Of a stretch of 64,000 bases of DNA, positions 16,380-62,600 are shown in pieces. Numbering within the stretch: position 1 is the stretch's first letter; each line of letters starts with the position of its first letter. A model generated the notes under the pieces. That model was not told where the DNA came from, did not search any database, and worked only from the letters and a program-made list of their open reading frames with translations. The stretch spans positions 4,265-68,264 of the forward strand of contig CAIOTT010000049.1 in assembly GCA_903861305.1 (NCBI GenBank), written 5' to 3'. The position numbers were made by a program, and so were the translations under genes. Origin of the DNA: Candidatus Omnitrophota bacterium (GTDB taxonomy: Bacteria; Omnitrophota; Gorgyraeia; Zapsychrales; Fredricksoniimonadaceae).

Positions 16380-18089
16380 ATGGCACACGATCAGGAAGTC
16401 TCACGCCGTCGAATATTGTTGATAAAACTTCCGTGTGTTGCGTTCCCGGACGCAAAGGCCGGGGGCGATCGGGATTTTCACCGAAAGTCCGGTTATACGA
16501 CGGAACTCCCGCTGGGGCTTGCCGTCCTTGGGGCTTTTATAGACAAGTATAATAAACTGGACCTTCAGCTTAAAGCCGTTGATATTAATATCCTTGGGTA
16601 TACGGCACCGGGAAAGGGCGTTGATGAAGCATTGTTCAAGCCTCTGCTTTTGAAGACCATTGAAGAAGGCGCATATGATGTCCTGGCGCTGCAATGTGTT
16701 TTTGTATTTAATCATAAGTGGGTCCAATGCGCGGTGGAACATTCGAGGCGCTTTCATCCCAAAGCCAAGATCGTGCTGGGCGGCGGATATCCTACCCTTT
16801 TTCCCGAAAAGTGCTTAACGGATTATGATGTGGACCATGTGGTCATCGGGGAAGGCGAATCGGCTTTTTTGCATATTCTGAACGGTTATAACGCATTCCA
16901 GGATGATGCCTTTAGTGAGAAATTCCCGTTTGACGGGTATGGTTTGAAGCAATCAGATGGAAAGGCCCTGATCGTACCCAAGAAGCAATTTCTTCCGGGC
17001 GCCGAGATCGTGTCACCGGCGTGGCACTATTTCGATATCGAGACATATTTCAGGAACAGCGGCCGCAGGTCCATAACGGTGGAAGGCTGCCGGGGGTGTC
17101 CCTATCTTTGTACTTACTGTTCAACAGGATCGGCCTGGGGGAGAAATATCCGCTATAAACAGGTTGGTCAGCTTCTGGAAGAGATCAGGAGCATCGTCGA
17201 ACGCTATCAGCCAGATGAGCTGCTGTTTCCTGATGACAACATTGCTTTTGACGGGGCGTGGTTCAAGGGATTGTTGAACGGTCTTATTGCGCTCAAGCTC
17301 CCGGTAAAATTGAATTTTCTTCATTTTTCAGTAAAACATTTGAATGAAACAGTGCTTGATCTGCTGAAAGCAGCTCATGTTGAGCGCATTTGTTTCGCGG
17401 TTGAAACTGGCTCTCCGGAAGTTCAAAAGAGCATTCGTAAAAATCTGGATCTTGACCAGGTCAGGAAAGTGATGACTATGATCAAGGCCAGGAAACTGTA
17501 TACGCAGATATGCTGGATGATCGGGTTCCCACATGAAACGCTGGAGCAGGTCAAACAGACCCTTCGGCTGGTAAAAGAATTACGGGCAGAACACAATATG
17601 TTTTCACTGGTTGTTCCGTATCCCGGCACGGCCATGTTTGAGAGCGCGAACAAAGACGGTTTGCTGTCATTTGCTGATGACAGCCTGGATAATTATGACC
17701 GGCGCAAAGGCGGCCTTGTCCGTTCAGAGCAATGGACGCAGGCAGGGTTGCAGAACATGGCGTATGAAGTGAATATCGACGTTAATTTCCTTAACAATAG
17801 TTACTTGGATTCAGAGGAAGGCCGTGCTCATTTCCTGTTCGAGCTGGAAGGACTGACGGCTCGCCTGCCGGACCATGTGATCGTCAAGATCGTCCTGGGG
17901 CATTTGTACGGGCTTAAGAAAGACGAGCCGAAGCGCTCAGCCTGCTACGCCGCCGCGGCGAATTTGTTAAGAAGGGAAGATCTGCGGGATGTTTTCGGTA
18001 AATATTTTGAATGGGACCATCCGCTTATAAAAGAATTCCACGCTGCCAGGCCGGGCCTGGAACGCCCCAGCCCTGAAATTTTGAAATGA
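16380..18089 (+). CDS. Cobalamin-binding (class B) radical SAM enzyme
   Basis: The N-terminal B12-binding-like domain includes VVIGEGE. The radical SAM cluster motif is CRGCPYLCTYC (CxxxCxxC). Confidence 0.8.
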   Translation: MAHDQEVSRRRILLIKLPCVAFPDAKAGGDRDFHRKSGYTTELPLGLAVLGAFIDKYNKLDLQLKAVDINILGYTAPGKGVDEALFKPLLLKTIEEGAYDVLALQCVFVFNHKWVQCAVEHSRRFHPKAKIVLGGGYPTLFPEKCLTDYDVDHVVIGEGESAFLHILNGYNAFQDDAFSEKFPFDGYGLKQSDGKALIVPKKQFLPGAEIVSPAWHYFDIETYFRNSGRRSITVEGCRGCPYLCTYCSTGSAWGRNIRYKQVGQLLEEIRSIVERYQPDELLFPDDNIAFDGAWFKGLLNGLIALKLPVKLNFLHFSVKHLNETVLDLLKAAHVERICFAVETGSPEVQKSIRKNLDLDQVRKVMTMIKARKLYTQICWMIGFPHETLEQVKQTLRLVKELRAEHNMFSLVVPYPGTAMFESANKDGLLSFADDSLDNYDRRKGGLVRSEQWTQAGLQNMAYEVNIDVNFLNNSYLDSEEGRAHFLFELEGLTARLPDHVIVKIVLGHLYGLKKDEPKRSACYAAAANLLRREDLRDVFGKYFEWDHPLIKEFHAARPGLERPSPEILK

Positions 18090-18110
18090 GCTGTTCATTC
18101 CGGTTTATTA

Positions 18111-20093
18111 TCAGTGGGTCGAAAAACCTGATCGTTGGAGCACCGGCGCAATGGCTTCATTAACATAATAGGATGAGCCTGCGCGTGTCAAATGAGTTGC
18201 ATCCCAAAGCAAAAGCTTCGGGGCCCCGTCCTGGATCCTGACCATCGGACAGCGATCGTCCTGACAAGCCATTGAGAGCAATGAAATATATTTGATGCCC
18301 TGGCGCTCGGCGAGGTTCTTTAATGTCTGGTCAATACTGGCCAGCGCATACAAGGAGCTGTTAGAGATCAGGATCAGGTCGCCTTTTTGGGCTGATAAAG
18401 CCTGCGGCCTTAAGGACAGCAGATAGGGTTTTGGCAGGAAATATGATTTTGGGGTGTCATGGAAAAGGACTTGCGGCCCGACCAGGACCACGGTCTTGGT
18501 TTCGGGCTTGATCGCTTCGATCGTCTTGTTGAGCGCGGCTATAAAATCATGTTCCTGGATATAAGTGAACCAGCGGGCGGATATGATAATGGTATCCGGT
18601 TTATTGATCCTGATCCTGGAAAGGATCCGGGTGTTAATGCTGCTGCACTGTGATGAGTTGGCGCTGAAGCCGATCAGCGGGGCACAGGAGGCCATAGTAT
18701 ATTGTGATACATGCCTGTCAGGGTCTACGACCGATCCTTTCAGGCCCCAATACAGATCCGCCGCGTTTGAATCTCCCCAAAGGAACATCTCTGGTTTCCC
18801 ACCGGCCTGGCAGGCAGGCGCAAAATCGTTGGATAGAGGTTCTTTAAGGAAACACAGGTCTTCTCGATAAAATTCCTTCTCGGCACTGGATTCTGCCAGC
18901 TGATCTTGTGAGATCTGGGTTTGAAAGTTTGTCAGCCCGGCATTCGATGGGTGCATTGAGGGCAGAAAGGCAGTGGCCCCGCCAATAATGAGCGTTATCA
19001 ACGCCAATGTGACCAATACCCTGGACACTGTTCTTAGGGGGAGTTTTCGCAGCGGCACTTCAAGATAAAGATAGCAGAGCGTTGCGAGGATGAACGCTAA
19101 CCCGACGGCACCAAATTTAAATATGTGCCAAAGGCGAACGGTTTCAGGTTCATAGATATTGACGTAGACCAAAAGCGGCCAATGCCATAAATAGAGCGCA
19201 TAACTGATGAGCCCGATGAACACCGCGACCCGGTTGGAAAGAAGGTGGCGGTTGATCCAGGTCATGGGTCCGGCGGCAATAATAAGAGCCGCCCCGATCG
19301 TAGGTGCGAGCGCGGGCCATCCCGGGAAAGGCGTTTTTTCGTCAAAGAAAACGATCGCTATAACAATAAAAGCAAGGCCGAGGCATGATGCTGCATTGTC
19401 CAGTTTGTTCTTGTTGTTCGGCAAGAAAACGCCCTTGGCAGGGGGAGCCTCCTGCCTTGTTTTGACAGCAAGAAGGGATCCGGCCATCAATTCCCAGGCG
19501 CGCGTCCAGGGTGCATAGAATGCATGGGAAATGTCAGACCTTATAAAAAAGATATTCAGTGCAAAAGAGAAAGCCGCGATCGCGGCAATAAAATAGACAG
19601 GTTTTTGCCGTGTTTTCCATATAACCCACAGCGTGACCGGCCAAAGCAAATAAAACTGTTCTTCGATCCCGAGCGACCATAAATGCAGCAGTGGTTTGAG
19701 CAGCGAGTCCCCGTCGAAATAACCGGCTTCGCTCCATAAAAGAAAATTGGATGAGAACAATGATCCGGCGACAACATGCCGTCCCAGGCGCGCAAGGGTG
19801 TCAGGGACCAAAAACAAAGGCGCTGTGGCAAGAATGCTGGCCAGGACCAGTATCAGTGTAGGGAAGATCCGGCGTATGCGGCGTTGATAGAAGGTCTTGA
19901 AAGAAAATATGCCGTTTTCGATCTCGGCAAGGATGATGCCGGTTATCAGGAATCCGGAGATCACAAAAAAGATATCTACGCCGACAAAGCCGCCTTTTAT
20001 GTATTTAGGCGATAAATGGTAGCCGATGACCGCAAGTATGGCGATCGCCCGAAGTCCGTCAATGTCCCGGCGATAGAGGAGGGTTTTACGCAT
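18111..20093 (-). CDS. OafA-like O-acyltransferase (acyltransferase-3 membrane domain fused to SGNH domain)
   Basis: AT3 motifs DIDGLRAIAILAVIGYHL and VDIFFVISGF, about 10 TM helices, and a C-terminal SGNH block (LWGDSNAADL). Confidence 0.85.
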   Translation of the reverse strand: MRKTLLYRRDIDGLRAIAILAVIGYHLSPKYIKGGFVGVDIFFVISGFLITGIILAEIENGIFSFKTFYQRRIRRIFPTLILVLASILATAPLFLVPDTLARLGRHVVAGSLFSSNFLLWSEAGYFDGDSLLKPLLHLWSLGIEEQFYLLWPVTLWVIWKTRQKPVYFIAAIAAFSFALNIFFIRSDISHAFYAPWTRAWELMAGSLLAVKTRQEAPPAKGVFLPNNKNKLDNAASCLGLAFIVIAIVFFDEKTPFPGWPALAPTIGAALIIAAGPMTWINRHLLSNRVAVFIGLISYALYLWHWPLLVYVNIYEPETVRLWHIFKFGAVGLAFILATLCYLYLEVPLRKLPLRTVSRVLVTLALITLIIGGATAFLPSMHPSNAGLTNFQTQISQDQLAESSAEKEFYREDLCFLKEPLSNDFAPACQAGGKPEMFLWGDSNAADLYWGLKGSVVDPDRHVSQYTMASCAPLIGFSANSSQCSSINTRILSRIRINKPDTIIISARWFTYIQEHDFIAALNKTIEAIKPETKTVVLVGPQVLFHDTPKSYFLPKPYLLSLRPQALSAQKGDLILISNSSLYALASIDQTLKNLAERQGIKYISLLSMACQDDRCPMVRIQDGAPKLLLWDATHLTRAGSSYYVNEAIAPVLQRSGFSTH

Positions 20094-20271: not shown

Positions 20272-20352
20272 TAAGGTATGGTATCATTGAGTTCAAAATA
20301 TTAATTATTTGCAGTCATGTCAATGAGAATGCTCTTATTCGAAAGGTAACGC

Positions 20353-21219
20353 ATGGAAAAACTTACCGATATTCTTGCCACGGAACCACGTACTTTTTCG
20401 ATCGAGATATTCCCCCCGAAGACCGACAAGGGGATGGAAGCTTTGGAGGCAAACCTTGCCGAGCTGGCCAGGCTCAAGCCTGACTTTGTTTCCGTGACCT
20501 ACGGGGCCGGCGGGTCGAGCCGCGACAGGACCTTTGATCTTGTCCGCCTGGTCCAGGAGAAATACCGGCTCATCGCGATGCATCATTTCACCTGTGTCGC
20601 GCACACGCGCGGTGAGATCAGGGAAGTCCTTGACCGGCTCAAGGCCCATGATATCCGCAATATCCTTGCCCTGCGCGGCGATAATCCTATAGATTCGCCG
20701 GATTGGGTTCCCGGGCCGGATAACTTCCGTTACAGTTCTGAACTGGTAAAGTTCATCCGTGATTCTTACGGAGATTTCTTTGCCGTTGGCGTTGCGGGGT
20801 TCCCCGAGGGGCATCCTCTGGCGGCTGACCTTGCGGCCGATGTTAATGTTCTCAAGGCCAAGGTTGAGGCAGGCGGGGAATTCGTGATGACGCAGCTTTT
20901 TTTCGATAACGCGTTGTATTTTGATTATGTCAGGCGGCTCAAGGCGGCCGGTGTCAACGTGCGTGTTATCCCGGGTATATTGCCGGTCACCAGCTATGAG
21001 GCGGCGATCCATTTTTGCAAGGGGTGCGGCGCGTCGGTCCCGCAAAAGGTCCATGATATTTTCGCTCCCCTAGCCCAGGACAGGGAAAAGACCCTCGCGG
21101 CCGGCATCGCCTTTGCCGTTGAGCAGTGCCGGGAACTCCTGGCCGGCGGCGCTCCGGGGCTGCATCTGTATACGCTCAACAAGGCCGAGCCGGTGGCAAC
21201 CATCCTTCGGTCGTTGTGA
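20353..21219 (+). CDS. metF: 5,10-methylenetetrahydrofolate reductase
   Basis: FSIEIFPPKT, VTYGAGGSSR, ALRGD and FPEGHP are MetF signature blocks, and the length of 288 aa fits. Confidence 0.9.
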   Translation: MEKLTDILATEPRTFSIEIFPPKTDKGMEALEANLAELARLKPDFVSVTYGAGGSSRDRTFDLVRLVQEKYRLIAMHHFTCVAHTRGEIREVLDRLKAHDIRNILALRGDNPIDSPDWVPGPDNFRYSSELVKFIRDSYGDFFAVGVAGFPEGHPLAADLAADVNVLKAKVEAGGEFVMTQLFFDNALYFDYVRRLKAAGVNVRVIPGILPVTSYEAAIHFCKGCGASVPQKVHDIFAPLAQDREKTLAAGIAFAVEQCRELLAGGAPGLHLYTLNKAEPVATILRSL

Positions 21220-21236
21220 TCCCGGCAGGGAACGGC

Positions 21237-22292
21237 ATGCTTGCCAAAGACCATACCCTCGCCACGGTCAGGGGCCTGGCCATCATCCTTGTCATTTACG
21301 GCCATGTCATCCAGCGCAGCATCCTCGCGGCGGGCGGCGATTTCTTTGCCAGCGCGGCGTTCAAGGCCGTTTACGCCTTCCACATGCCGTTGTTCTTCTT
21401 CATCAGCGGTTATTCGATCGTTTTCAGTCTGGGCAGAAAAAGCATTCTTGATGTCTTCAAGGCCAGGTGCCGGAGCCTGCTGGTCCCTTATGCCATCTGG
21501 GGTGCTTTGGGGGTCATGACAATGTCGCTGCTGGATGTGATCGCCGGGAAAGCCGTGAACATCCTGCACTGGCCCGTGGCCCTGGCAGATGAATTGCTGT
21601 GGCATCCGGTCATCTGGTTCCTGTTCACCTTGTTCGCGGCCTGCGGCCTTTTGTTGAGTTCCATCAAGCTGCAGGAACGCCTTGGCCTTTGGGCTTTTGC
21701 GCTGGTTTACCTGGGCCTGATGGGCATCGCGTCGAATCAAAGTTTTGCGCTTTACTATGTTCAGTGGTTCTATCTTTTTTATCTGGCGGGATATCTTTTC
21801 AACAGGTACGGCCCGGTGACGCGGGATTGGCGGATGCGCCCGGTGGTCTTTGCCGGCGTCTTGTTTGCCTTCACGGCGCTGGTATTGCTCTGGGGCAAAA
21901 ACGATTATATCTATGTCAACAGGATGATATTCACCCGCGAGCAGTTCGGTGTCCAGGCCCTGCGGCTTGTGTACCGCTATTGTGCGGGCGGGCTGGGGAT
22001 CGCGTTGATATTCCATATTGGCGCGTATCTGGCGCGGACCAGGGTGCAGGCTTTTTTGATTGAGATCGGCGTTTATTCGTTGGGCATTTATCTGCTTCAG
22101 CGGTATATTGTTGAGGGCCTTTATGCGAGGCTGGCCGGCAGGATGCCTGTTGGTCTTATGGCAGATACGTGGTCATTGGCCTGGTTCCTGGCGCCTGCGG
22201 CCACGCTGGTCTTTGTTTGTTTGTGCTGGTCCCTCGTCAGGGCTCTGACGCGGCGGGATCCCGTTTTGGGAGCGGTGTTGTTCGGACGGTGA
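21237..22292 (+). CDS. Acyltransferase-3 family membrane O-acyltransferase
   Basis: VRGLAIILVIYGHV and FHMPLFFFISGY motifs in a polytopic protein. The internal ATG 21237 is preferred over the track start 21126, which overlaps metF by 94 nt. Confidence 0.8.
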   Translation: MLAKDHTLATVRGLAIILVIYGHVIQRSILAAGGDFFASAAFKAVYAFHMPLFFFISGYSIVFSLGRKSILDVFKARCRSLLVPYAIWGALGVMTMSLLDVIAGKAVNILHWPVALADELLWHPVIWFLFTLFAACGLLLSSIKLQERLGLWAFALVYLGLMGIASNQSFALYYVQWFYLFYLAGYLFNRYGPVTRDWRMRPVVFAGVLFAFTALVLLWGKNDYIYVNRMIFTREQFGVQALRLVYRYCAGGLGIALIFHIGAYLARTRVQAFLIEIGVYSLGIYLLQRYIVEGLYARLAGRMPVGLMADTWSLAWFLAPAATLVFVCLCWSLVRALTRRDPVLGAVLFGR

Positions 22293-22298
22293 GGTGAA

Positions 22299-23699
22299 AT
22301 GCAGGAAGATCTGGCCAGATATTATGACGCCCTCGCGCCCCGCCGGGACCAATTCCGCCGGGCGCACGGGTATTATTACCGGACGCTGACGCGGTTGTAC
22401 CGTTATTTTGTCCCCGAGGGAAAGAAGGTCCTGGAGGTGGGCACGGGCACGGGGGAGCTGTTGAACGCGTTGAAACCTTCGGCCGGTGTGGGGGTGGACC
22501 TGAGCCCTGCCATGGTCGCGATCGCCCGCAAGAAATATCCGCATTTGCGTTTTGAGGCCGGCCCGATCAGCACGGCGGCGGATGCAGGGACCTTTGACCA
22601 CATCATCCTGCCGGGCGTCCTTGGCGAGGCCGAGGATATCCAGGCCTTGTTCACGTCCCTGCGCGGGTTTTGCACGCGCGACACGCGGATCGTCATCGAG
22701 TACTACAGTTATCTCTGGCAGGTGATCCTGCGCGCGGCCGAGAAGCTCGGGCTCAAGATGCCCCAGCCCGAGCAGAACTGGCTGACCGCGGATGATATCG
22801 TGAATTTTCTGCGGCTTTCGGGGTATGAGGTGATCCGCAAGGAACGCGCGATACTTTGTCCGGTCAACCTGTGGCTGGTGAGCGACTTCATCAACCGTTA
22901 CCTGGCGAAGCTTCCTTTCTTCAACGCCTTGACCCTCAATCACTTTATCATCGCGCGGCCGGTGTTTGCCGGTGCGCGGGAACTTTCGGTCTCCGTGCTG
23001 GTCCCCTGCCGCAACGAAAAGGGGAATATCGAGGCGGCTGTGACCCGCACGCCCTCCTTCGGCGCCAGCCAGGAATTCATTTTTGTCGAGGGGCATTCGA
23101 AGGACGGGACGTATGAAGAGGTCGAGCGGGTTATCAGCAAGTATCCGCAGAAGAATATCCGTCTCTACAAACAGCCCGGCAAAGGCAAGGGGGATGCCGT
23201 GCGCTTCGGTTTCAGCCTGGCGCAGGGCGATGTTTTGATGATCCTTGACGCGGACCTGACCGTGATGCCCGAAGACCTGCCCAAATTCTATGAAGCCCTT
23301 CGTGACGGGACGGGAGAGTTCATCAACGGCTGCCGCCTGGTCTATCCTTTGGAAAAAGAGGCGATGCGATTGCTGAACCTCATCGCGAACAAGCTGTTCG
23401 GCCTGTTCTTTTCCTGGCTCCTGGGCCAGCGGTTCAAGGATACGCTCTGCGGTACCAAGGTCATGCTCCGGCGGCATTATCTGGAGCTTGCGGCCAACCG
23501 GCATTATTTCGGCGACTTTGATCCATTCGGGGATTTTGACCTTATTTTCGGTGCGGTGAAATTGAATTTAAAGGTCATTGAACTGCCCGTGCGCTACAAG
23601 AGCCGCAGTTACGGGGAAACACAGATCCAGCGCTTCCGCCACGGCCTTCTGCTGGCGCGCATGTGCCTGTTCGCGATGAGGAAGATCAAATTTATATGA
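22299..23699 (+). CDS. Fusion of a class I SAM methyltransferase with a GT2 glycosyltransferase (polyprenyl-phosphate sugar synthase-like)
   Basis: N-terminal VLEVGTGTGELL (SAM motif I). The C-terminal GT2 part has VSVLVPCRNEKGNIE, GKGDAV and ILDADL (DxD), followed by C-terminal hydrophobic segments. Confidence 0.8.
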   Translation: MQEDLARYYDALAPRRDQFRRAHGYYYRTLTRLYRYFVPEGKKVLEVGTGTGELLNALKPSAGVGVDLSPAMVAIARKKYPHLRFEAGPISTAADAGTFDHIILPGVLGEAEDIQALFTSLRGFCTRDTRIVIEYYSYLWQVILRAAEKLGLKMPQPEQNWLTADDIVNFLRLSGYEVIRKERAILCPVNLWLVSDFINRYLAKLPFFNALTLNHFIIARPVFAGARELSVSVLVPCRNEKGNIEAAVTRTPSFGASQEFIFVEGHSKDGTYEEVERVISKYPQKNIRLYKQPGKGKGDAVRFGFSLAQGDVLMILDADLTVMPEDLPKFYEALRDGTGEFINGCRLVYPLEKEAMRLLNLIANKLFGLFFSWLLGQRFKDTLCGTKVMLRRHYLELAANRHYFGDFDPFGDFDLIFGAVKLNLKVIELPVRYKSRSYGETQIQRFRHGLLLARMCLFAMRKIKFI

Positions 23700-24835
23700 A
23701 GAAGTATCATGCTATTGTCATCCACGCGTTGGCTGCGGCCATTTTCCTGTTCGGGCTCGCGTCAGGGTTTTCTGTCGCCGTAAGGAAACCGCTCTGGAAT
23801 GACGAGATATATTCCCAGGTGGCTAATATCGACGGGTTGAGCATGTCCGCCATTTGGCGCGGCGGCGTGCAGGAAGGCAATAACGCGCCATTGTTTTACG
23901 CGTTGCAGAAGGGGCTGTGTTCTCTCCTTCATTATTCCGCCGGGGATCTTTGGCACAAGCAGCCCTTTGAGGCGAGGATCATCCTGCGTATCTTGCCTGT
24001 CATGTTCATGGCACTGGGGCTGGCCATAAGCTTCTGGGCCTTTGCAAGGATGTACTCGATCGCTATAGGCGCGGTGGCGTTCCTGGCCGCGCTGAGCACG
24101 TATCTTGTCTGGGGGTATATCGCTGAGGCCAGGCCTTACGCGATGGTATTCTTTGGCAGTGTGCTGCAGGCGGCGGTCCTTTTAAGGGCGCTGCGTTCAA
24201 AGGATACTGCCCGGGGCTGGGGGCCCGTTGCCGCGGCACATCTGTTCCTGGCGGTCACGAGCCCTTTGAGCGTTATCCAGGTGACGTCGGCAGGGGTGGC
24301 TTTGTGGGGTTTTGGTTACCGCCGGCTTTGGCCTTTGCTGGCCATGATCGCTTTGCCTCTGGCCGTGGGGCTTGGGTACCATCAGCTTTACAGGGAACAT
24401 TACCATTTCTATTTTGCTTCTTACGGCCAGCCGCTGGAGCTCGTCAAAGCGGCGATCCCCGAAGGGCGGCTGCAGTTCCTTATTGTCCTTCCTTTTGTTC
24501 TTTGGGCGTGGGCGCGTCGCAGCGGTGAGAAGGTCGGCATGAATGTATGGCTTTTTCTTGGCTGGGCATGGCTGACGATCCTGGGTTACGGTGTTCTGCT
24601 TGGTTATTTGTGGCTGCACCGCAATGATCCAGCGGCAGGCGCGACATTCGAGGTGCCCAATCGCTATATGATGGCCCTGGCGGGCGTCAGCAGTGCCGCC
24701 ATGGCTGTGCTTTGCGCGGAACTTGTCCAGAGGCCGAAGGTGGTGTGGCTGCGCGTTATTGTCTGGAGCGGCATCCTTGTCCTTATCCTGCCGCGGGTCG
24801 TTAAGGTTTTTCGCTGGGCGGCAACGCTGAATTGA
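23696..24835 (+). CDS. Polytopic GT-C-type glycosyltransferase (ArnT/PMT-like)
   Basis: ATG 23696 overlaps the upstream TGA. About 10 TM helices, with an acidic motif in the first loop (PLWNDEIYSQ) as in the GT39/GT83 families. Confidence 0.55.
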   Translation: MKKYHAIVIHALAAAIFLFGLASGFSVAVRKPLWNDEIYSQVANIDGLSMSAIWRGGVQEGNNAPLFYALQKGLCSLLHYSAGDLWHKQPFEARIILRILPVMFMALGLAISFWAFARMYSIAIGAVAFLAALSTYLVWGYIAEARPYAMVFFGSVLQAAVLLRALRSKDTARGWGPVAAAHLFLAVTSPLSVIQVTSAGVALWGFGYRRLWPLLAMIALPLAVGLGYHQLYREHYHFYFASYGQPLELVKAAIPEGRLQFLIVLPFVLWAWARRSGEKVGMNVWLFLGWAWLTILGYGVLLGYLWLHRNDPAAGATFEVPNRYMMALAGVSSAAMAVLCAELVQRPKVVWLRVIVWSGILVLILPRVVKVFRWAATLN

Positions 24836-26461: not shown

Positions 26462-26501
26462 CGTTCATTCTTTGAACAGTCGATGGGTCCGGGGCTTCGT
26501 T

Positions 26502-27080: not shown

Positions 27081-28854
<1,774 letters not shown>

Positions 28855-30704: not shown

Positions 30705-30705
30705 G

Positions 30706-55841: not shown

Positions 55842-55871
55842 CTTTTATAGTTTGTTTGAAGGGGGTTGAAC

Positions 55872-56453
55872 ATGGCGATCATGGGTGATGTAACGGGAGA
55901 CCGGATACGTTTGTCAGCGCTTGATCCGGAACGCCTTTCACCGGAGTACGCCCTCTGGATGAAGGATCCGGATGTCCTGCAGTTTCTGGCGGAACCCGCC
56001 GGAGATTATTCTCCCGGCGCGTTGCGGGAATATGTTCGTCGCATGAACGCGAGCCCGGCGGATCATTTTTCGGGAATATTCCTTAATGCCACAGGAGAGC
56101 ATATCGGCAATATCAAGATCGGCAGCGTGCATCCGTATCACCGTCGTGCCGATATCGGGCTTCTTGTCGGAGCCAAAAAAATGTGGGGGCAGGGGTTCGG
56201 GACCGAGGCGCTTTTTCTTGCCACGCGTTATGCCCTGGCAGAGCTTGGATTGAACAAGCTTTACGCGGGGATCCTGGTCACGAATACAGCATCACGCCGG
56301 GCATTTTCCAAGGTAGGCTACCGCGAAGTTGGGATCTATGAACGTCACTGGCGCCTGGGCGATGAGTACGTTGATGCGGTCCTTGTAGAATGCTGCGCAC
56401 CTTTCCGGGCGGAGCTTTCTAAGAGGCCGAAGGAAACGGGGGGAAGGCCATGA
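55872..56453 (+). CDS. GNAT family N-acetyltransferase (PseH/RimL-like)
   Basis: The acetyl-CoA binding-like block is WGQGFGTEA within a RimL-type layout. ATG 55872 is preceded by GAAGGGGG, and the track start 55866 is TTG. Confidence 0.7.
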   Translation: MAIMGDVTGDRIRLSALDPERLSPEYALWMKDPDVLQFLAEPAGDYSPGALREYVRRMNASPADHFSGIFLNATGEHIGNIKIGSVHPYHRRADIGLLVGAKKMWGQGFGTEALFLATRYALAELGLNKLYAGILVTNTASRRAFSKVGYREVGIYERHWRLGDEYVDAVLVECCAPFRAELSKRPKETGGRP

Positions 56454-57205
56454 TCGGAGCGGTGATCCAGGCAAGGATGAATTCCAGCAGGCTTCCAGGG
56501 AAAGTGTTGCGGAAAGTTGCAGGCAGGCCTTTATTGGAGTTCTTACTGGAACGGCTGGCGGCATCGCAACGCATTGAAAAGATCGTTCTCGCTACGTCAC
56601 TGGAGCATGATGACAATGAGATCGCCGCTTGCGGCGGTTCGTTTGGTGTTCCTGTTTACAGAGGTTCCCAGGAAGATGTTCTGGATCGTTTCTACCAGGC
56701 GGCACAGAAGCATGATATGGAACATGTTGTGCGCCTTACGGGAGATTGCCCTTTGATCGACCCGGGCATATGCGACAGGCTTATTGACTTTTATTTGGAC
56801 CGAAAGGTTGATTACGCGGCATTGTCTCCAGGATTTGCGGAAGGATTGGACTGTGAAGTCGTGTCATTTGCAGCGCTTGCGCGATCGCATCGCGAGGCTG
56901 AATTGCGCTCTGAGCGTGAGCATGTGACCTTGTATGTCCGCAATCACCCTGAATTCTTTTCTTCGCTTCGACTTGAGAATAATGTGGATGACAGCAGGTT
57001 TCGGGTGACGGTGGATGACCCTGAAGATCTTGAGGTAGTATCGGCGGTAATAAGCCATTTTGCGGCCTTGAGCGGGCGGTGTGACGCGCCGTGGCAGCAG
57101 GTAAAGGCTTTCCTGGCGCAGCATCCGCATATCGCGGCGATCAACGCCCATATTGAGCGCAATGAAGGGTTGAGAATATCGCTGGCTAACGATGGGAAGG
57201 CGTAA
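56450..57205 (+). CDS. Sugar cytidylyltransferase (SpsF/acylneuraminate cytidylyltransferase family)
   Basis: MIGAVIQARMNSSRLPGKVL N-terminal motif and a RLTGDCPLIDP block. Confidence 0.75.
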   Translation: MIGAVIQARMNSSRLPGKVLRKVAGRPLLEFLLERLAASQRIEKIVLATSLEHDDNEIAACGGSFGVPVYRGSQEDVLDRFYQAAQKHDMEHVVRLTGDCPLIDPGICDRLIDFYLDRKVDYAALSPGFAEGLDCEVVSFAALARSHREAELRSEREHVTLYVRNHPEFFSSLRLENNVDDSRFRVTVDDPEDLEVVSAVISHFAALSGRCDAPWQQVKAFLAQHPHIAAINAHIERNEGLRISLANDGKA

Positions 57206-57208
57206 CAC

Positions 57209-57979
57209 ATGAAGCAGCTGCGCGTCGGCCTCAAGGTCTGGTCGACCAATCTCCAATTGGCCGATGATATAGCCCGGGGCTTTGACAAAGGGCTGTTCGA
57301 TTATGTTGAACTTTATGTTGTTTCAGGGAGCCTGCACAATACTCTGGAAGTGTGGCGTTCACTGGGGCTTAAATTCATCATCCATTGCCCGCATATGTTC
57401 AACGGCTTTAATCTTGCGGATCAGACATTGCGTTTGAGCAACCAGGAGAAATTCGCTGAGGCCCGTCTTTTTGCGGATGCTTTGTCGGTTGACACGATCA
57501 TCGTGCATTCGGGCAACGGCGGGCCGCTGCAGGAGGCGGCGGAACAGATGCGTTTATTGTCCGACGGCCGCATCTGTGTCGAGAACAAGCCCAAACTCGG
57601 CCATAACGGCGCGGTCTGTTTAGGGGCCACTCCGGATGAAGTGAAGGCGATTATGGATGGTGCCGGTATCAACGGGTTTGTCCTTGATTTCAGCCACGCG
57701 GTTTGCGCGGCGAATGTTCTGGGTGTCGACCTTATGGGGTTGTTAAGGGGTTTCATGTCGCTTAAACCGCGCCTCATGCATTTGAATGACGGGCCCCGGG
57801 ATGCTGTCCAGGACAAGCATATGAATTTAGGCCATGGATCTTTTGATCTGCGTGCTTTTGTCAGGATGATCCCTGATGGCGGCAGCGTTTCATTGGAAAC
57901 ACCGAATCAGCCCGGATCAGGGCTCAGGGATTTTTACGCGGACCGCCGATTCTTGTCGGGACTTCTGGAGGAGGGATAA
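57209..57979 (+). CDS. Xylose isomerase-like TIM-barrel protein (sugar phosphate isomerase/epimerase family)
   Basis: The pattern of conserved H/E/D-containing strands (IIHCPH, IIVHSG, VENKP, LDFSH, HLND) is consistent with the AP_endonuc_2 fold. Specificity is unknown. Confidence 0.5.
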   Translation: MKQLRVGLKVWSTNLQLADDIARGFDKGLFDYVELYVVSGSLHNTLEVWRSLGLKFIIHCPHMFNGFNLADQTLRLSNQEKFAEARLFADALSVDTIIVHSGNGGPLQEAAEQMRLLSDGRICVENKPKLGHNGAVCLGATPDEVKAIMDGAGINGFVLDFSHAVCAANVLGVDLMGLLRGFMSLKPRLMHLNDGPRDAVQDKHMNLGHGSFDLRAFVRMIPDGGSVSLETPNQPGSGLRDFYADRRFLSGLLEEG

Positions 57980-59056
57980 ATGCCGGATCATATTTTTTTG
58001 CAGGGACAGAAGGTCGGCAAAGGGTGCCCATGCTATGTTATCGCCGAGATCGGTTCGAACCATAATCGCGACATAGGCACAGCCAAGAAACTTATTGACG
58101 CCGCTAAAGAGGCGGGATGCGATGCCGTGAAGTTCCAGTCGTATACCGCCGAAGGCCTGTATTCTGTGTATACCCCGCGGCCTTCTGAAATAGAAGGCCG
58201 GAGCCATCCGGGTGAACGGCTGTATGATCTTATCAAAAGGATCGAGATGCCGGTGGCGTGGCACCGGCCGTTGAAAGAGTATTGCGATCAGGCGGGAATA
58301 TCGTTCTGCTCCACGCCTTTCGATGAGGGCATGGTTGATGTCCTGGAGCAGGTGCAGGTCCCTTTTTACAAGGTTGCATCATTCGAGATAACACATTATC
58401 CAATGCTCAGAAGGATCGCCAGGACGGGTAAGCCGGTCATCCTGGCTACCGGTAACAGCGGGCTGGATGACATTGAACGTGCCGTGGCCTGCCTGAAGGA
58501 TGCTGGCTGTTCGGACCTGGCGCTCCTGCATTGCGTCAGTCAGTACCCGGCACGGGAAGAGGACATGAATTTGAGGTGCATGGCCACATTGGTCCAGGCG
58601 TTTGACTGTGTGGTGGGGCTTTCAGACCACACGACAAACAGCCTGTCCGCAGCACTGTCGATCGTGTTGGGCGCGGCGATCATTGAGAAGCATATCACAT
58701 TGGATAAGGCGGCTTTCGGCCCGGACCATCCGTTTGCTCTGGAACCGGACGAATTGAAAGAGCTGGTCACCACAGTACGCCGGTCCGAGCGGATACTGGG
58801 CAGCGCTGTCAAGGCTGTCCGGTCAAGTGAGGCAGAGAACCATAAGATCGGCCGCCGGAGCCTTGTGGCAGCGCGTGATATCGCGGCCGGGGAATTGCTG
58901 ACCGAGGACAAGATCGCTGTTAAGCGGCCCGCGTTCGGCCTGCATCCGAAGTATTTGCCGGTATTGGAAGGAAAAAGGCTGGTCCGGGATATAAAAAAAG
59001 ACCAATGGTTGACCTGGGATCATTTTTTGAATGGAAAGGACAACGATGTTTCCTGA
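57980..59056 (+). CDS. Nonulosonic acid synthase (NeuB/PseI/LegI family) with C-terminal SAF domain
   Basis: CYVIAEIGSNHN..AKKLIDAAKEAGCDAVKFQ, the LSDHT motif, and a C-terminal SAF-like region (RRSLVAARDIAAGELLTEDKIAVKRP). Confidence 0.85.
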   Translation: MPDHIFLQGQKVGKGCPCYVIAEIGSNHNRDIGTAKKLIDAAKEAGCDAVKFQSYTAEGLYSVYTPRPSEIEGRSHPGERLYDLIKRIEMPVAWHRPLKEYCDQAGISFCSTPFDEGMVDVLEQVQVPFYKVASFEITHYPMLRRIARTGKPVILATGNSGLDDIERAVACLKDAGCSDLALLHCVSQYPAREEDMNLRCMATLVQAFDCVVGLSDHTTNSLSAALSIVLGAAIIEKHITLDKAAFGPDHPFALEPDELKELVTTVRRSERILGSAVKAVRSSEAENHKIGRRSLVAARDIAAGELLTEDKIAVKRPAFGLHPKYLPVLEGKRLVRDIKKDQWLTWDHFLNGKDNDVS

Positions 59057-59975
59057 AAAAATAAAGGCCAAACATGGAAAGCACCGGGTCGTGGTTGATG
59101 CCCGGTGGGGTTATGCGCGCCTTGACCCGCTCCCTTCTGAAAAAGAGATAGGGGAGTTTTATAAAAAGAAGTATTATGCGCTGATCAAGAAGGGCGGCCG
59201 CGCTCCCGAGTTGCGGCGGCAGATGGGGCCTGAGAAAGAACGCGATCTGGAAAAGAAATGGCTTCAGGAGACCTTGTATAAGGACATTAATTTTTTTCTG
59301 GGGGAATTGAGCTTTCTTAAAGGACGCCGCCTGATCGATGTCGGATGCGGGACCGGGCAGCTGATCGCAGGCATGCGGCGTTTGAAGTGGGATGTCGCGG
59401 GGATCGAGCCTTTTGAAGACAAGAACGTCATGCATGCGCAGGGAGTCTCAAACATATATACCCAGACGCTGGAAGAGTTCATTGCCGCGCATCCGGACCT
59501 CCTGGGCACGTACGATGTTGTTACGCTCATGAGTGTTCTGGAGCATTTGCTGGATCCGATCGCGGAATTGGAGAAGATCCGCAAGCTGGTCAGGAAAGAC
59601 ACGGGTGTGGTATGCGTCCGTGTGCCGAATGATTTCAATCCCCTGCAGTACCACGCGCAGAAGAAGAACCGCAAAGCCCCGTGGTGGGTCGCGGCGCCGG
59701 ACCATTTGAATTATTTTGATACGGTTTCTTTGCCTCGGATCCTTTCCCGCGTCGGATTCGAACCGCTTCTTGTTACGACGGATTTTCCCATGGAGCTCTT
59801 TTTGCTGATGGGTGATGATTACGTTGGTGATCAGCGGGTGGGCCGGGAATGCCACCGCAGGCGCGTGAATTTTGAACTTTCAGTGCCGGGTGAGCTAAGA
59901 AGGGGCCTGTATCGCTCATGGGCGCAGATGGGGCTTGGCCGGGACGTGATGGTGCTGGCCCGCAGGGTGCGATAG
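59046..59975 (+). CDS. Class I SAM-dependent methyltransferase
   Basis: SAM motif I LIDVGCGTGQLI and the downstream block VVTLMSVLEHLLDP. Confidence 0.75.
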   Translation: MFPEKIKAKHGKHRVVVDARWGYARLDPLPSEKEIGEFYKKKYYALIKKGGRAPELRRQMGPEKERDLEKKWLQETLYKDINFFLGELSFLKGRRLIDVGCGTGQLIAGMRRLKWDVAGIEPFEDKNVMHAQGVSNIYTQTLEEFIAAHPDLLGTYDVVTLMSVLEHLLDPIAELEKIRKLVRKDTGVVCVRVPNDFNPLQYHAQKKNRKAPWWVAAPDHLNYFDTVSLPRILSRVGFEPLLVTTDFPMELFLLMGDDYVGDQRVGRECHRRRVNFELSVPGELRRGLYRSWAQMGLGRDVMVLARRVR

Positions 59976-59983
59976 GAGAGACG

Positions 59984-60955
59984 ATGAATATCCTCATTAC
60001 GAGCGCTTCACGGAAGGTCTGGCTTGTCAGGGCTTTTCAGGAGGCCTTGCGGATGCGGTCCGGGACAGGCCGTGTTTTGACGGCTGATATGGACCCTTGG
60101 TCTGCGGCGCTGTACATTTCTGACGGGCACGTCCTTTTGCCTAAAATATCGGACGAGTCTTATGTCGGGACTATCATGGAAATATGCGAGCGTGAGGATG
60201 TGAAGCTTGTTGTTCCCACCCGTGATGAAGAGCTGCGGGTATTTTCCGGCCAGCGGGAGTATTTCAGCAAGCGCGGCGTTTCAGTCATGGTCAGTGATCA
60301 GGCGGCCATTGCCACATGCAGGGACAAGTATCAATTTCACGGGTTTTTAAAAGCCGCGTCTTTCCCGGCCCTGGGATCATGGCTGCCGGGGCAGGAGCCA
60401 TTGACATCATTGCCGTATCCTTTGTGTGTTAAGACACGTTTCGGCAGCGGGAGCAAACATGTTTTTAAAGCTGAAGATCCTCTTGAAGCCGAATTTTATG
60501 CGGCACGGGTCCCTGATCCCATGGCCCAGGAATTCCTCCAGGGCAAAGAGTATACGGTCGATGTTTTTGTGACACGTGGCGGGAAGGTTGTTTCGGCCGT
60601 TGTGCGTGAAAGGGTTGAGATCGTCGCAGGAGAGTCCTACAAATCGATCACGGTAAAAGATGACCGGATCCAGGCCCAGGCCGTGGCCCTTGTCGAGCGC
60701 CTTGGCCTGGCGGGTCATGTGACGGCCCAGTGCATCAAGTCGGAGCGGGGTATTTTTTTTATTGAGATCAATCCCCGTTTTGGCGGAGGAGCCTCGCTGG
60801 GTTTCAAGGCCGGGGCGCACACACCGTGTTTTTTATTGCAAGAATTGGCAGGGGAAGCGTTCGCAGGGCCTCTTGTCGCTTATGAAGAGGGCCTCGTATT
60901 ATTGAAGTATACAAGTGACTTCTTTCTCAGGGCAGACGGGATCTCCGGGAATTAG
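59984..60955 (+). CDS. ATP-grasp ligase
   Basis: MNILITSASRKVWLVRAF..VVPTRDEEL pre-ATP-grasp layout, and C-terminal EINPRFGGG. GGAGAG lies upstream of ATG 59984. Confidence 0.7.
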   Translation: MNILITSASRKVWLVRAFQEALRMRSGTGRVLTADMDPWSAALYISDGHVLLPKISDESYVGTIMEICEREDVKLVVPTRDEELRVFSGQREYFSKRGVSVMVSDQAAIATCRDKYQFHGFLKAASFPALGSWLPGQEPLTSLPYPLCVKTRFGSGSKHVFKAEDPLEAEFYAARVPDPMAQEFLQGKEYTVDVFVTRGGKVVSAVVRERVEIVAGESYKSITVKDDRIQAQAVALVERLGLAGHVTAQCIKSERGIFFIEINPRFGGGASLGFKAGAHTPCFLLQELAGEAFAGPLVAYEEGLVLLKYTSDFFLRADGISGN

Positions 60956-60974
60956 ATACCAGGTGAAGGTGACG

Positions 60975-62600
60975 ATGACACAAGAGATCCAGAAGAACAC
61001 AGTTGTCCTTTTTAAAGGAAAATCTTATCCTGACGACAGCCTCCGGGATCAGCGGCGCACTGCCATTATTCCGAACGCTCTGATAGCCATAGCGGCGCCG
61101 TTGCGGGATGCCGGGTGGCGCGTGGAGATCGTTGATCAGCATGATCCTGTCGAAAAGGTGTATGCCGCTCTCAAGCCCATTCTGGGGCGGGCCGTTTGCG
61201 TCGGGATCTCTGCGTTGACCGGCCATGAGATCGCCGAGGGGCTCCGGCTGTCGCGCCTGATCAAGGAAAGCCATCCGGAGTTGCCGATCATCTGGGGTGG
61301 GTGGCATGTTTCCATTTTGCCGGATGAATCGATCAAAAGCGCGTGCGTGGATATCGTCGTGCGGGGCCTCGGCCAGATCGTTTTCCCTAAACTTGTGAAC
61401 GCGCTCGCGAACGGGCAAGACCTGGCGGGGATCCCGGGTGTCCTTTTCAAAAAAGACAGCCGGGTGATCAGGACCCAGGAGGATAAGTCGGCAGGTTTGG
61501 CGGATGTCCCCCTTCCGGCGTTCGATCTTTTGGACCTTGATTTCTATCGTGAACAGTCATTGATGCTCAGGCGCAAGCCTGTTATCAATCAGATCCCGAT
61601 AACGGGTTATCTTTATTATGTAACGAGTTTTGGGTGCCCCTGCCAATGTGCTTTTTGTTGCAATGATGTGCTGTTCCAGCGCCGGTCCTATGCCTATCCG
61701 GTGGAAAAGGTGGTGGACCAGCTTAAATGGCTCGTCGAAGAAAAGGGGTTTAATTCGATCGGGCTTATTGATGCGAACTTTTTCGTCAACATTGAAAGAG
61801 TTAAGCGTTTTTGCCAGTTGATCATTGAAAAAAAGATCCCTTTTGTCTGGGACGCGCAGATGCATGTTGATGATATATTGCGGTATGAAAAGAAGGGTGT
61901 CCTCAAGCTCCTGAAGGATAGCGGTTGTTACCGTGTTAATGTCGGGTCAGAGAGCGGGTCTCAGGAGATCCTGGATTATATCCGCAAGAACATCACGGTC
62001 GAGCAAACAATCGAGTCGGCGCGTCTGCTGAAGAAGTACGATATTGAGGCGGCGTACAACTTTCTTTTCCGCCTCCCGAAGGTCGAGGAGCACCGGCATT
62101 TGAACGAAAGCTTCAGGCTGGCGCAAGCCCTTAAGGAGATTGATCCGGAGATATCCCTTCCGGTTTCCTTTTATGTTCCGTTCCCGGGAACTCCGATGTA
62201 TCGCGATGCCCTGGCGCGAGGCCTTCAAATGCCGGATACGCTTGAGGGGTGGGGGGATTTTGACAGCAATTATGACCGGGCCAGCCGCCAATCGTTCGCC
62301 TGGAGATCGGCCGAAAGAGAAGACCTGATCACGCGTGTCATGATGTTTTACATCCCCTTGGCGGTCCCCGGGAACATGCATCGCGGGACCCTGGTGCGCG
62401 TGCGGGATAAGATGAAGACATCAAAGTTCAGGGTTTTTATTTGGGCGGGGCATTGGCTTGCGAAACTACGGTTGAAGTATGCGTTCTTCGGTTTTCCGTT
62501 CGAGATCGGCATTTACAAGTTCTTTCATAATTTACGAGGCGGGCAGGAGTATGTCCCTGGCGGGAAATGCGATGTGGGGAAGCCGGCTGAATCGGATTGA
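60975..62600 (+). CDS. Cobalamin-binding (class B) radical SAM enzyme (divergent)
   Basis: N-terminal Rossmann-like B12-binding-type domain and cluster motif SFGCPCQCAFC. The GEGE motif is replaced by VRGLGQ. Confidence 0.7.
   Translation: MTQEIQKNTVVLFKGKSYPDDSLRDQRRTAIIPNALIAIAAPLRDAGWRVEIVDQHDPVEKVYAALKPILGRAVCVGISALTGHEIAEGLRLSRLIKESHPELPIIWGGWHVSILPDESIKSACVDIVVRGLGQIVFPKLVNALANGQDLAGIPGVLFKKDSRVIRTQEDKSAGLADVPLPAFDLLDLDFYREQSLMLRRKPVINQIPITGYLYYVTSFGCPCQCAFCCNDVLFQRRSYAYPVEKVVDQLKWLVEEKGFNSIGLIDANFFVNIERVKRFCQLIIEKKIPFVWDAQMHVDDILRYEKKGVLKLLKDSGCYRVNVGSESGSQEILDYIRKNITVEQTIESARLLKKYDIEAAYNFLFRLPKVEEHRHLNESFRLAQALKEIDPEISLPVSFYVPFPGTPMYRDALARGLQMPDTLEGWGDFDSNYDRASRQSFAWRSAEREDLITRVMMFYIPLAVPGNMHRGTLVRVRDKMKTSKFRVFIWAGHWLAKLRLKYAFFGFPFEIGIYKFFHNLRGGQEYVPGGKCDVGKPAESD

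Follow-up and report, generated by a model that had tools for sequence, protein, structure and literature searches.

A 64,000-nucleotide stretch of contig CAIOTT010000049.1 from a Candidatus Omnitrophota bacterium (hereafter the window) carries nine radical S-adenosylmethionine (SAM) genes within 46 kb, and the region around them reads as a surface-glycan biosynthesis island of at least 47 kb that runs off the window end. In our preferred reading, to which we give a probability of roughly 60%, this island is a surface-glycan locus put together from portable cassettes for tailoring, every one of which brings radical SAM enzymes of its own. One of them, cassette A (28876-42268), is grouped around a split transketolase, and another, module B (51497 to at least 63619), around nonulosonic acid synthesis. 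The direct observations on which this reading draws are the domain content, the operon-like arrangement, and the conserved synteny of cassette A and module B. To our knowledge, sugar tailoring by radical SAM enzymes has been described almost exclusively in antibiotic pathways, with one step each. What would be new here is its occurrence in conserved multi-enzyme cell-surface glycan cassettes, including a class B radical SAM family linked to nonulosonic acids.

The window genes were annotated with Pfam and NCBIfam profile scans (Table 1), and a scan of all plausible genes places the onset of the glycan island at ~16.4 kb, after a GAPDH gene (14996-16057) and a PAS-GGDEF-EAL gene. This GAPDH belongs to a 90%-identity cluster in which every named member comes from a Candidatus Omnitrophota metagenome-assembled genome, and window proteins recur on metagenomic contigs of up to 174 kb. 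Seven of the nine radical SAM genes lie inside a single 37-kb co-directional array (26472-63619) of 35 plus-strand genes, in which no intergenic gap exceeds 58 bp and the start of many genes overlaps the stop before it by 4 bp. An initial annotation of this DNA had described the radical SAM genes as interleaved with nucleotide-sugar enzymes, and they are: PseB, an RmlD-PseC fusion, PseI (NeuB family), a CMP-cytidylyltransferase, and two TylC3-type sugar C-methyltransferases stand among them, together with RmlD-like and epimerase genes, a GFO oxidoreductase, two TIGR04372 glycosyltransferases, and a PglK/MsbA-like ABC exporter. A chance arrangement is ruled out by the 35-gene one-strand array and by neighborhoods that are conserved in other phyla. 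The same annotation had ended the island at 62600, which is too early, since an acyl carrier protein (ACP) gene follows at 63374-63619 and the parent contig continues past 64000 with genes for an AAC(3)-like acyltransferase, an FkbH-like protein, a methyltransferase, a glyoxalase-fold protein, a DUF4910 protein, and two unknown proteins (693 and 504 aa). Together with the ACP gene, this downstream set looks like a glyceryl-ACP-type side-chain pathway. On a strain-variant contig, class B gene no. 5 (49948-51486) is absent, so that the FkbM gene is followed directly by RmlD-PseC, and the TIGR04372 glycosyltransferases differ in length from those of the window. Such strain-level variation is typical of variable surface-antigen loci.

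The nine reported radical SAM open reading frames (ORFs) are confirmed and intact, and each matches PF04055 (38.8-86.9 bits, cutoff 29.5) with one canonical CxxxCxxC motif that is invariant in ortholog alignments. The gene calls of the sequence collection agree with the earlier starts for 30706 (355 aa) and 60975 (541 aa), the latter ORF also being given as 60915-62600. Six of the nine had been assigned to class B, and all six carry an N-terminal B12-binding-type Rossmann domain. Five of them (nos. 1, 2, 3, 4, and 6, the second on the minus strand) pass PF02310 with 43.5-56.6 bits (cutoff 32.1) and PF04055 with 57-87 bits. No. 5 reaches 70 bits with PF04055 but falls just under the PF02310 cutoff at 30.9 bits. 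The GEGE-type motif reported for all six is literal in four and reads GDGE in no. 5 and GLGQ in no. 6, while an upstream beta-strand-GG motif is found in six of six and a motif scan detected DxHxxG in none. The combination of GG and GEGE without DxHxxG is consistent with the base-off/His-off mode of class B enzymes whose structures are known, and the N-terminal domains with these two motifs are highly conserved among orthologs. Pairwise identity among the six proteins is merely 23-31%, and a recent paralogue expansion was rejected for this reason; judged by their divergence, they are six old families.

The remaining three proteins (a, b, and c, at 28876, 30706, and 35808) had been called twitch- or SPASM-like. 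This label holds because of four to five C-terminal cysteines that are invariant across orthologs (five in 8 of 8 sequences for a, four auxiliary cysteines in 25 of 25 for b, and five in 18 of 18 for c), and b also has a SPASM match. Proteins b and c are homologous to each other (25% identity, E = 1.5e-27). Their best matches to solved structures are weak, with E-values of merely 1e-6 to 1e-7: BlsE and DesII, both sugar-acting, for b, and DesII, anSME, and BlsE for c. A PDB sequence search returned no solved relative of a. Like DesII, BlsE, BtrN, and anSME, several of which act on sugars, b and c have a radical SAM core plus one auxiliary-cluster cysteine set, although they meet no family cutoff.

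Cassette A comprises the split transketolase, methyltransferases, the three twitch/SPASM-like enzymes, and two class B enzymes (nos. 3 and 4). Its widely distributed anchor, class B no. 4, has more than 3000 homologs, the best of which are 55-66% identical and spread over Omnitrophota, Nitrospirota, Desulfovibrionaceae, Syntrophia, Planctomycetota, Lentisphaerota, and others. An alignment-based genome scan confirmed 164 relatives, and the best 80 were kept as loci with 10 kb on each side. Candidate cultivable carriers of the cassettes are Anaerobaca lacustris, Phaeospirillum tilakii, Arcobacter sp. YIC-464, Lachnospiraceae 47-T17, and Pseudodesulfovibrio karagichevae. Across these 80 loci, the no. 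4 gene is accompanied by radical SAM genes resembling b or c in 42 (75 ORFs) and by members of an SDR dehydratase/epimerase group in 40. The 220-aa methyltransferase MT220, its commonest individual partner, is found in 35 (median identity 47%). The C and N subunits of the transketolase follow in 29 and 24 loci, an HldE-like nucleotidyltransferase-kinase in 27, a DegT aminotransferase in 24, a zinc-dependent alcohol dehydrogenase (Zn-ADH) in 23, an RmlD-like reductase in 20, a GmhA-like SIS isomerase in 19, an E1-alpha ThDP protein in 17, and an NTP-transferase in 16. Orthologs of c at ~51% identity occur in 16 loci, as does a second class B gene (22-37% identity).

In some of these loci, the resemblance extends to gene order. 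Three loci from deltaproteobacterial metagenome-assembled genomes (MAGs; L058, L069, and L083) carry the set of the window in nearly the same order (a, b, the GT9-like gene, both transketolase subunits, a b-like gene, class B no. 4, and a no. 3-like gene), with the methyltransferase also present in L058 and L083. Radical SAM gene a travels with the GT9-like gene, the two being found together in these three loci and in L035, L047, and L050. In Anaerobaca lacustris (L005, 12422-21449), the order is GmhA-like, radical SAM, HAD, transketolase, methyltransferase, radical SAM, class B, and RmlD-like, followed by a 2825-aa TPR-glycosyltransferase and FliD. Flagellin genes lie in a Hydrogenedentota MAG locus (L007, 2970-3797) and a Lachnospiraceae MAG locus (L043, 20674-21384), which suggests that the cassette serves flagellin glycosylation in these three lineages. 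For the window, a flagellin glycosylation island was considered and dropped, as the Pfam and NCBIfam scans of its genes found no flagellar gene or Maf domain and only those three related loci adjoin flagellin or FliD. Orthologs of no. 4 with 39-50% identity also occur in DPANN archaea (Pacearchaeota, Woesearchaeota, and Nanoarchaeia; L035, L039, L041, L047, L048, L050, L053, L062, and L070), where three loci (L035, L047, and L050) carry five to seven radical SAM genes. Therefore, transfer of the cassette between domains is indicated.

The count of nine radical SAM genes in 46 kb, presented initially as exceptional, is at the high end but not isolated. The no. 4 loci, each of about 21 kb, hold one radical SAM gene in 30 cases, two in 21, three in 12, four in 9, five in 1, six in 6, and seven in 1, so that at least three are present in 29 of 80 loci and five to seven in 8 of 80. 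The nine genes of the window are thus an instance of a recurrent, uncharacterized phenomenon rather than a singularity.

Module B shows a comparable conservation around class B no. 6, which belongs to a small family with ~30 orthologs at 37% identity or more. Its context was compared in 18 loci (a Halobacteriota archaeon MAG, an ENA contig, a Desulfobacteraceae MAG, and fifteen metagenome loci), which have the same module as the window at 51497-63329. The partners of no. 6 are PseI (12 loci), the methyltransferase and the ATP-grasp ligase (11 each), the HAD phosphatase (10), the CMP-transferase and the class III aminotransferase (8 each), and the TIM protein, the aldo-keto reductase (AKR), and RmlD-PseC (7 each), and the loci without module partners are mostly contigs of 2-4 kb. 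The RmlD-PseC fusion is itself conserved in distant loci with the same module (for example, L087, 700-2877), and the contig with the 58%-identical ortholog P0148 combines the module with two class B genes and an ABC exporter. Class B no. 6 is hence, by synteny in Bacteria and Archaea, a dedicated component of a nonulosonic-acid module. Module B loci hold one or two class B genes and no cassette A genes, and the two units are found independently of each other in other genomes. Just downstream of one homologous module (L128, 19493-21317) lie a diversity-generating-retroelement-like pair (bAvd and a reverse transcriptase) and an ISL3 transposase.

Sugar genes also surround the relatives of class B no. 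1, which number ~85 with 38-47% identity. One ortholog on a Cloacimonetes contig lies among PseB-like, DegT, CMP-transferase, GNAT, ATP-grasp, HAD, and Asn-synthase-like genes, in a cluster that contains two further class B genes and one SPASM radical SAM gene, and a second adjoins PseB-like, DegT, and AKR genes. In every locus examined, sugar clusters are the setting of families 1, 4, and 6 and, by adjacency, of family 3. At a further locus (L127, 9713-10738), a no. 1 ortholog is followed directly by DUF4430 and DUF6580 proteins, two families associated with the binding or transport of cobalamin; this hints, if only weakly, that cobalamin is used there. In no. 3, an extra cysteine-rich C-terminal tail (residues 441-508, with C441, C444, C459, C464, C467, C485, C500, and C508) could bind an additional metal or Fe-S site.

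From these observations, we infer a scheme for substrates, cobalamin use, reaction types, and the acceptor. Cassette A would be a deoxysugar or higher-sugar tailoring unit acting on an NDP-4-keto-6-deoxy sugar, a substrate proposed because of the 4,6-dehydratase, the TylC3-type C-methyltransferases, the WbuC cupin, and the RmlD/Fcl-like reductases. Candidates are the product of PseB, whose gene lies just upstream, or an NDP-heptose made elsewhere. For the transketolase, two roles are conceivable: provision of sedoheptulose-7-P or a higher ketose, or addition of a two-carbon unit. DesII/BtrN/BlsE-like redox, elimination, or epimerization steps are the most probable work of the twitch enzymes. 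For the class B enzymes, the likeliest reaction is C-C bond formation (C-methylation) at unactivated carbons, or else a radical rearrangement or AprD4-like deoxygenation. Module B would make a CMP-activated, pseudaminic-acid-type nonulosonic acid through PseB, PseC, PseI, and the CMP-transferase. Its conserved extras (ATP-grasp ligase, class III aminotransferase, AKR, TIM protein, HAD phosphatase, and methyltransferase), with the downstream ACP, FkbH, and AAC(3)-like proteins, may make and attach an unusual N-acyl or aminoacyl side chain, and no. 6 would modify that chain or the sugar skeleton. Class B nos. 1, 2, and 5 are probably accessory enzymes that add strain-variable decorations. Assembly on a lipid carrier could be carried out by the GT2 and TIGR04372 glycosyltransferases, followed by flipping of the product by the PglK/MsbA-like ABC exporter and O-acylation by the AT3 enzymes.

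In comparison with the canonical pseudaminic acid pathway of Campylobacter and Helicobacter (PseB, C, H, G, I, and F), the window has PseB, PseC, and PseI above their family cutoffs, a GNAT, and a CMP-cytidylyltransferase. It differs by the fusion of PseC to an RmlD-like domain and by seven conserved extra genes, namely the six extras listed above and the class B gene.

By phmmer against the PDB, the best matches of the class B proteins are AprD4 (6fd2) and 9ccb, followed by TokK, CysS, TsrM, and OxsB. Structure 9ccb is QCMT, also named MgmA (PMC12931638), and it is the closest solved relative of no. 2 (E = 3e-27). With the cobalamin-dependent enzymes QCMT, TokK, CysS, TsrM, and OxsB, the window proteins have fold and domain order in common, and the alignments extend into the N-terminal cobalamin domain in five of six (nos. 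1, 2, 3, 4, and 6, but not 5), although identity is merely 14-21% and the substrates of these enzymes are peptides, carbapenems, tryptophan, or nucleotides. In contrast, the alignments to AprD4 cover the radical SAM core only. A class B architecture, with an N-terminal B12-type Rossmann domain ahead of the radical SAM core, is established at the level of domains, and AlphaFold2 models built from ortholog alignments (pLDDT 90.5 for no. 4 and 87.1 for no. 6) confirm it as a predicted fold in these two. The class B proteins may plausibly use cobalamin and catalyze C-methylation, activities that a sequence by itself does not reveal.

Several results weigh against the cassette reading as set out above. 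(i) None of the nine radical SAM proteins reaches any equivalog or subfamily cutoff in the NCBIfam scan, where the class B models covered were HpnJ, HpnR, BchE, PhpK, Sden_1168, QCMT/TIGR04014, KedN5, BzaD, TsrM-type, ladderane-type, and ApyD. The best score relative to its cutoff is that of no. 4 with the Sden_1168 P-methyltransferase model (197 bits versus 575), no. 1 obtains 109 bits versus 360 with its best match, no. 2 is below every cutoff, and TIGR04014 scores of the window proteins are 68-140 bits (cutoff 360). As no enzyme attains the cutoff of a characterized family, the reaction types are guesses. (ii) The PDB sequence matches of no. 5 are confined to the radical SAM core, with no significant match to a B12 domain. 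(iii) In Foldseek searches, cobalamin-free AprD4 is in the top group for the model of no. 6 (TsrM, AprD4, QCMT, OxsB, CysS, TokK) and on top for that of no. 4 (AprD4 with TM-scores of 0.73/0.78, then TsrM, QCMT, CysS, OxsB, TokK); the predicted folds match cobalamin-dependent enzymes and AprD4 about equally well. (iv) The GNAT and the cytidylyltransferase miss the PseH cutoff (35.5 bits versus 93.1) and the PseF cutoff (26.6 bits versus 205.7), the latter protein looking more KdsB-like, and no PseG was recognized among the scanned window proteins, although functional analogues of PseH, PseG, and PseF may be present. (v) For cassette A, a scan of the window turned up neither GmhA nor HldE nor any other gene for NDP-sugar activation, and no Wzy, WaaL, oligosaccharyltransferase, or target protein was identified in it, so that an LPS-like lipid, EPS, or a protein are all candidates for the acceptor. 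(vi) The partner counts in the 80 loci rest on crude stop-to-stop ORF calls, with best BLAST matches to window proteins and clustering of the remainder.

Points (i) to (iii) bear above all on an alternative that we regard as possible, at well under even odds, in which some or all of the class B proteins would not be cobalamin-dependent methyltransferases. They could instead be AprD4-like diol dehydratases working with a downstream reductase, or catalyze HpnJ-, OxsB-, or BchE-like rearrangement or cyclization, leading to deoxygenated or ring-modified sugars. AprD4, a radical SAM 1,2-diol dehydratase of apramycin biosynthesis, is sugar-acting, has a B12-like Rossmann domain, and ranks first or close to first among solved relatives in both sequence and fold, being the best phmmer PDB match for four of the six as well as the first Foldseek match for no. 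4. HpnJ and BchE are among the best NCBIfam matches, and no. 5 misses the B12-binding cutoff. AprD4 is paired with AprD3 as dehydratase and reductase, and reductases near no. 4 echo this: a GFO oxidoreductase gene comes directly after it in the window, and RmlD-like or Zn-ADH reductases lie within 3.5 kb in 13 and 19 of 80 loci, respectively. A consistent pairing of dehydratase and adjacent reductase for the no. 4 family is, however, unsupported, as the neighbors are too variable and the ORF calls too crude. Further, the AprD4-family model NF033070 gives the six proteins 59-87 bits against a cutoff of 500, the N-terminal domain is left out of the AprD4 alignments yet included in those to cobalamin-dependent enzymes, and this domain is highly conserved with its GG and GEGE motifs. 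Published work cuts both ways: no structural features separate non-methylating from alkylating class B enzymes, and AprD4 and ArsL homologs do not bind cobalamin, whereas each class B group with a characterized member includes C-methyltransferases (PMC12931638).

The cassette reading also departs from the simplest reading of the initial annotation, in which all nine enzymes act successively on one sugar, the nonulosonic acid, and yield a single hyper-modified monosaccharide after multiple radical C-methylations or rearrangements. The nine genes do share one island, seven of them in one array, PseB lies directly upstream of cassette A, and in two loci (L009 and L017) the no. 4 family and c (with MT220 too in L009) adjoin PseB and PseC without transketolase or heptose genes. 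However, PseI and PseB homologs are each found in only 6 of the 80 no. 4 loci, compared with 19-27 for the GmhA- and HldE-like heptose genes, module B loci lack cassette A, and no. 5 is dispensable, being absent from the strain variant. The enzymes fall into at least three separable cassettes, which other genomes carry independently of one another; therefore, several different sugars or side chains are likelier than one heavily processed sugar, and we consider the single-sugar scheme unlikely.

Least probable is that part of the island, especially 16380, 24801, or cassette A, makes a modified lipid, RiPP, phosphonate, or small-alcohol head group and is merely co-located with sugar genes: the best NCBIfam matches do include lipid (ladderane-type, HpnJ/HpnR), RiPP (ApyD), and P-methyltransferase (Sden_1168, PhpK) models, and an APH-type kinase, NTP-transferase, and Zn-ADH in some no. 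4 loci resemble Lic- or Fom-like small-alcohol activation, but all these model matches are far below cutoffs, the window showed neither a precursor peptide nor a PEP mutase or lipid-synthesis gene, both examined no. 1 orthologs lie in PseB/DegT sugar clusters, and the dominant no. 4 neighbors are nucleotide-sugar enzymes, so that a lipid, RiPP, or phosphonate product was rejected.

Returning to the cassette reading, the closest functional parallels are, besides AprD4 (deoxygenation) and DesII, BlsE, and BtrN, the enzymes GenK, GenD1/GntE, Fms7, MoeK5, and Fom3, each with a single C-methylation. These last five are characterized class B C-methyltransferases (PMC12931638). Like the window proteins, they combine a Rossmann B12-type domain with a CxxxCxxC radical SAM core and are embedded among sugar-modifying genes, with methylation of unactivated sp3 carbons as the expected chemistry. 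The window differs from the GenK/GenD1/MoeK5 type in having six separate uncharacterized families, judged by the NCBIfam scan, in which they had no equivalog match and no GenK/GenD1/Fom3-type model was among the matches. Its context also differs, being a cell-surface glycan and nonulosonic-acid island rather than a secondary-metabolite cluster, with six such enzymes in one locus. In line with the claim that there is no characterized precedent, a search of the literature library used (radical SAM with transketolase, heptose, or cobalamin; flagellin pseudaminic acid; class B glycans; O-antigen B12; TIGR04372) found nothing describing this cassette or joining radical SAM enzymes with nonulosonic acids, and the Omnitrophota papers found mention radical SAM in passing only.

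A bolder proposal, which we put forward tentatively and hold to be doubtful as a whole, joins both units. The 60975 family would be the first radical, probably cobalamin-dependent, C-C-bond former acting on a nonulosonic acid, its hexose precursor, or its N-acyl chain, giving a C-alkylated or more than nine-carbon sialic-acid-like sugar in Bacteria and Archaea; the transketolase/twitch/class B cassette would assemble, by radical chemistry, a higher sugar with a branched or extended chain; and together they would represent widespread, unrecognized "radical-tailored" surface sugars of anaerobes. What can be said already is that conserved multi-radical SAM cassettes are built into surface-glycan loci of many uncultured anaerobes and DPANN archaea. 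If the proposed chemistry is true, their surface sugars would have C-methyl, branched, or deoxygenated features new to glycobiology, with a bearing on phage and predator recognition, on the host attachment reported for Omnitrophota, and on the reading of glycan and biomarker mass spectra. It would also add enzymes for C-H functionalization of sugars to the toolbox and give functional handles on several of the >100 uncharacterized class B groups. Class B comprises 83,589 sequences in >100 groups, the largest of which are structurally unexplored (PMC12931638). While the lead is solid, uncharacterized class B families are abundant and the chemistry proposed here is entirely inferred.

Table 1. 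Genes of the glycan island, with window positions and the basis of each assignment
Position	Strand	Feature	Basis
16380-18089	+	Class B radical SAM no. 1, 569 aa, CPYLCTYC at residue 240	Pfam B12-binding + radical SAM core
18111-20093	-	AT3-SGNH O-acyltransferase, convergent	Pfam Acyl_transf_3 + SGNH
20353-21219	+	Methylenetetrahydrofolate reductase (MTHFR)	Pfam MTHFR E = 2e-90
21126-22292	+	AT3 acyltransferase	Pfam
22299-23699	+	Methyltransferase-GT2 fusion, polyprenyl-phosphate glycosyltransferase-like (AglJ/ArnC-like)	Pfam, NCBIfam
23663-24835	+	Unknown 390-aa membrane protein, ~8 transmembrane segments	Hydropathy; no Pfam/NCBIfam match
24801-26246	-	Class B radical SAM no. 2, 481 aa	Pfam
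26472-27080	+	MarR-like, EPS-associated-type regulator, opens 35-gene array	TIGR04176 50.8 bits, below cutoff 88
27077-27808	+	Papain-family (C1) cysteine peptidase	Pfam E = 4e-16
27823-28854	+	PseB (UDP-GlcNAc inverting 4,6-dehydratase), directly upstream of cassette A	TIGR03589 481.4 bits vs 407.75
28876-29763	+	Radical SAM a, 295 aa	Pfam Radical_SAM only; 5 invariant C-terminal cysteines
29760-30704	+	GT9 (heptosyltransferase)-like protein	Weak Pfam + NCBIfam matches, C-terminal region only
30706-31773	+	Radical SAM b, 355 aa	Radical_SAM + SPASM (PF13186) 28.3 bits vs cutoff 21.5
31777-32607 and 32604-33548	+	Split transketolase, N and C subunits	Pfam, NCBIfam
33545-35134	+	Class B radical SAM no. 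3, 529 aa	Pfam, PDB search
35136-35798	+	Class I SAM methyltransferase, 220 aa (MT220)	Pfam
35808-36878	+	Radical SAM c, 356 aa, twitch-like	Pfam Radical_SAM only; 5 invariant non-motif cysteines
36875-37792	+	NAD-dependent epimerase/reductase (GDP-fucose-synthase-like)	Pfam, NCBIfam
37789-38985 and 39527-40768	+	Two TylC3-type sugar C-methyltransferases	Pfam Methyltransf_13 and Methyltransf_14
38995-39504	+	WbuC-family cupin, between the TylC3-type C-methyltransferases	TIGR04366 116 bits vs cutoff 42
40799-42268	+	Class B radical SAM no. 4, 489 aa, cassette anchor	Pfam
42290-43354	+	GFO/IDH/MocA oxidoreductase	Pfam, NCBIfam
43351-44565 and 45407-47077	+	Two TIGR04372-family glycosyltransferases	NCBIfam 187 and 207 bits vs cutoff 45
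44562-45461	+	RmlD-like reductase, between the TIGR04372 glycosyltransferases	Pfam, NCBIfam
47071-48891	+	Fused TMD-NBD ABC exporter, PglK/MsbA-like (lipid-linked glycan flippase type)	Pfam, NCBIfam
48912-49889	+	FkbM-family methyltransferase	Pfam, NCBIfam
49948-51486	+	Class B-like radical SAM no. 5, 512 aa, weakest cobalamin case	Radical_SAM 70 bits; B12-binding 30.9 vs 32.1
51497-53650	+	RmlD-like domain (N-terminal) fused to PseC aminotransferase	TIGR03588 481.9 bits vs 423.5
53647-57979	+	Aldo-keto reductase, class III aminotransferase, GNAT, CMP-cytidylyltransferase (KdsB/PseF-like), xylose-isomerase-like TIM protein	Pfam, NCBIfam
57980-59056	+	PseI (nonulosonic acid synthase, NeuB family)	TIGR03586 352.1 bits vs 340.25
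59031-59975	+	Methyltransferase	Pfam, NCBIfam
59918-60955	+	PylC-like ATP-grasp ligase	Pfam, NCBIfam
60975-62600	+	Class B radical SAM no. 6, 541 aa	Pfam
62643-63329	+	HAD phosphatase	Pfam, NCBIfam
63374-63619	+	Acyl carrier protein (ACP)	Pfam, NCBIfam

Some genes of the island's first part deserve separate mention. Minus-strand ORFs overlapping 20335-23504 have no Pfam match, and the plus-strand genes were preferred. The island with the MTHFR gene (20353-21219) holds six conventional SAM methyltransferases in addition to the six class B enzymes, and MTHFR may help to regenerate methionine and SAM for a product that is heavily methylated. The membrane protein at 23663-24835 could act with the adjoining GT2 (22299-23699) as its GT-C-type or polymerase partner, the pair perhaps forming a polyprenyl-phosphate-sugar synthase and a GT-C-type transferase. 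The peptidase at 27077-27808 is odd company for a sugar operon.

Upstream of the island, the window encodes a protein of 1011 aa that begins with a hydrophobic, signal-like segment and ends in an SdrD-B/CarboxypepD_reg-like domain (203-3238), and a PAS-GAF-GGDEF-EAL protein (11597-14863). Between these, an ABC ATPase, an MBOAT protein, and an unknown 374-aa protein with a single transmembrane segment (6252-9687) may constitute a polymer O-acylation system.

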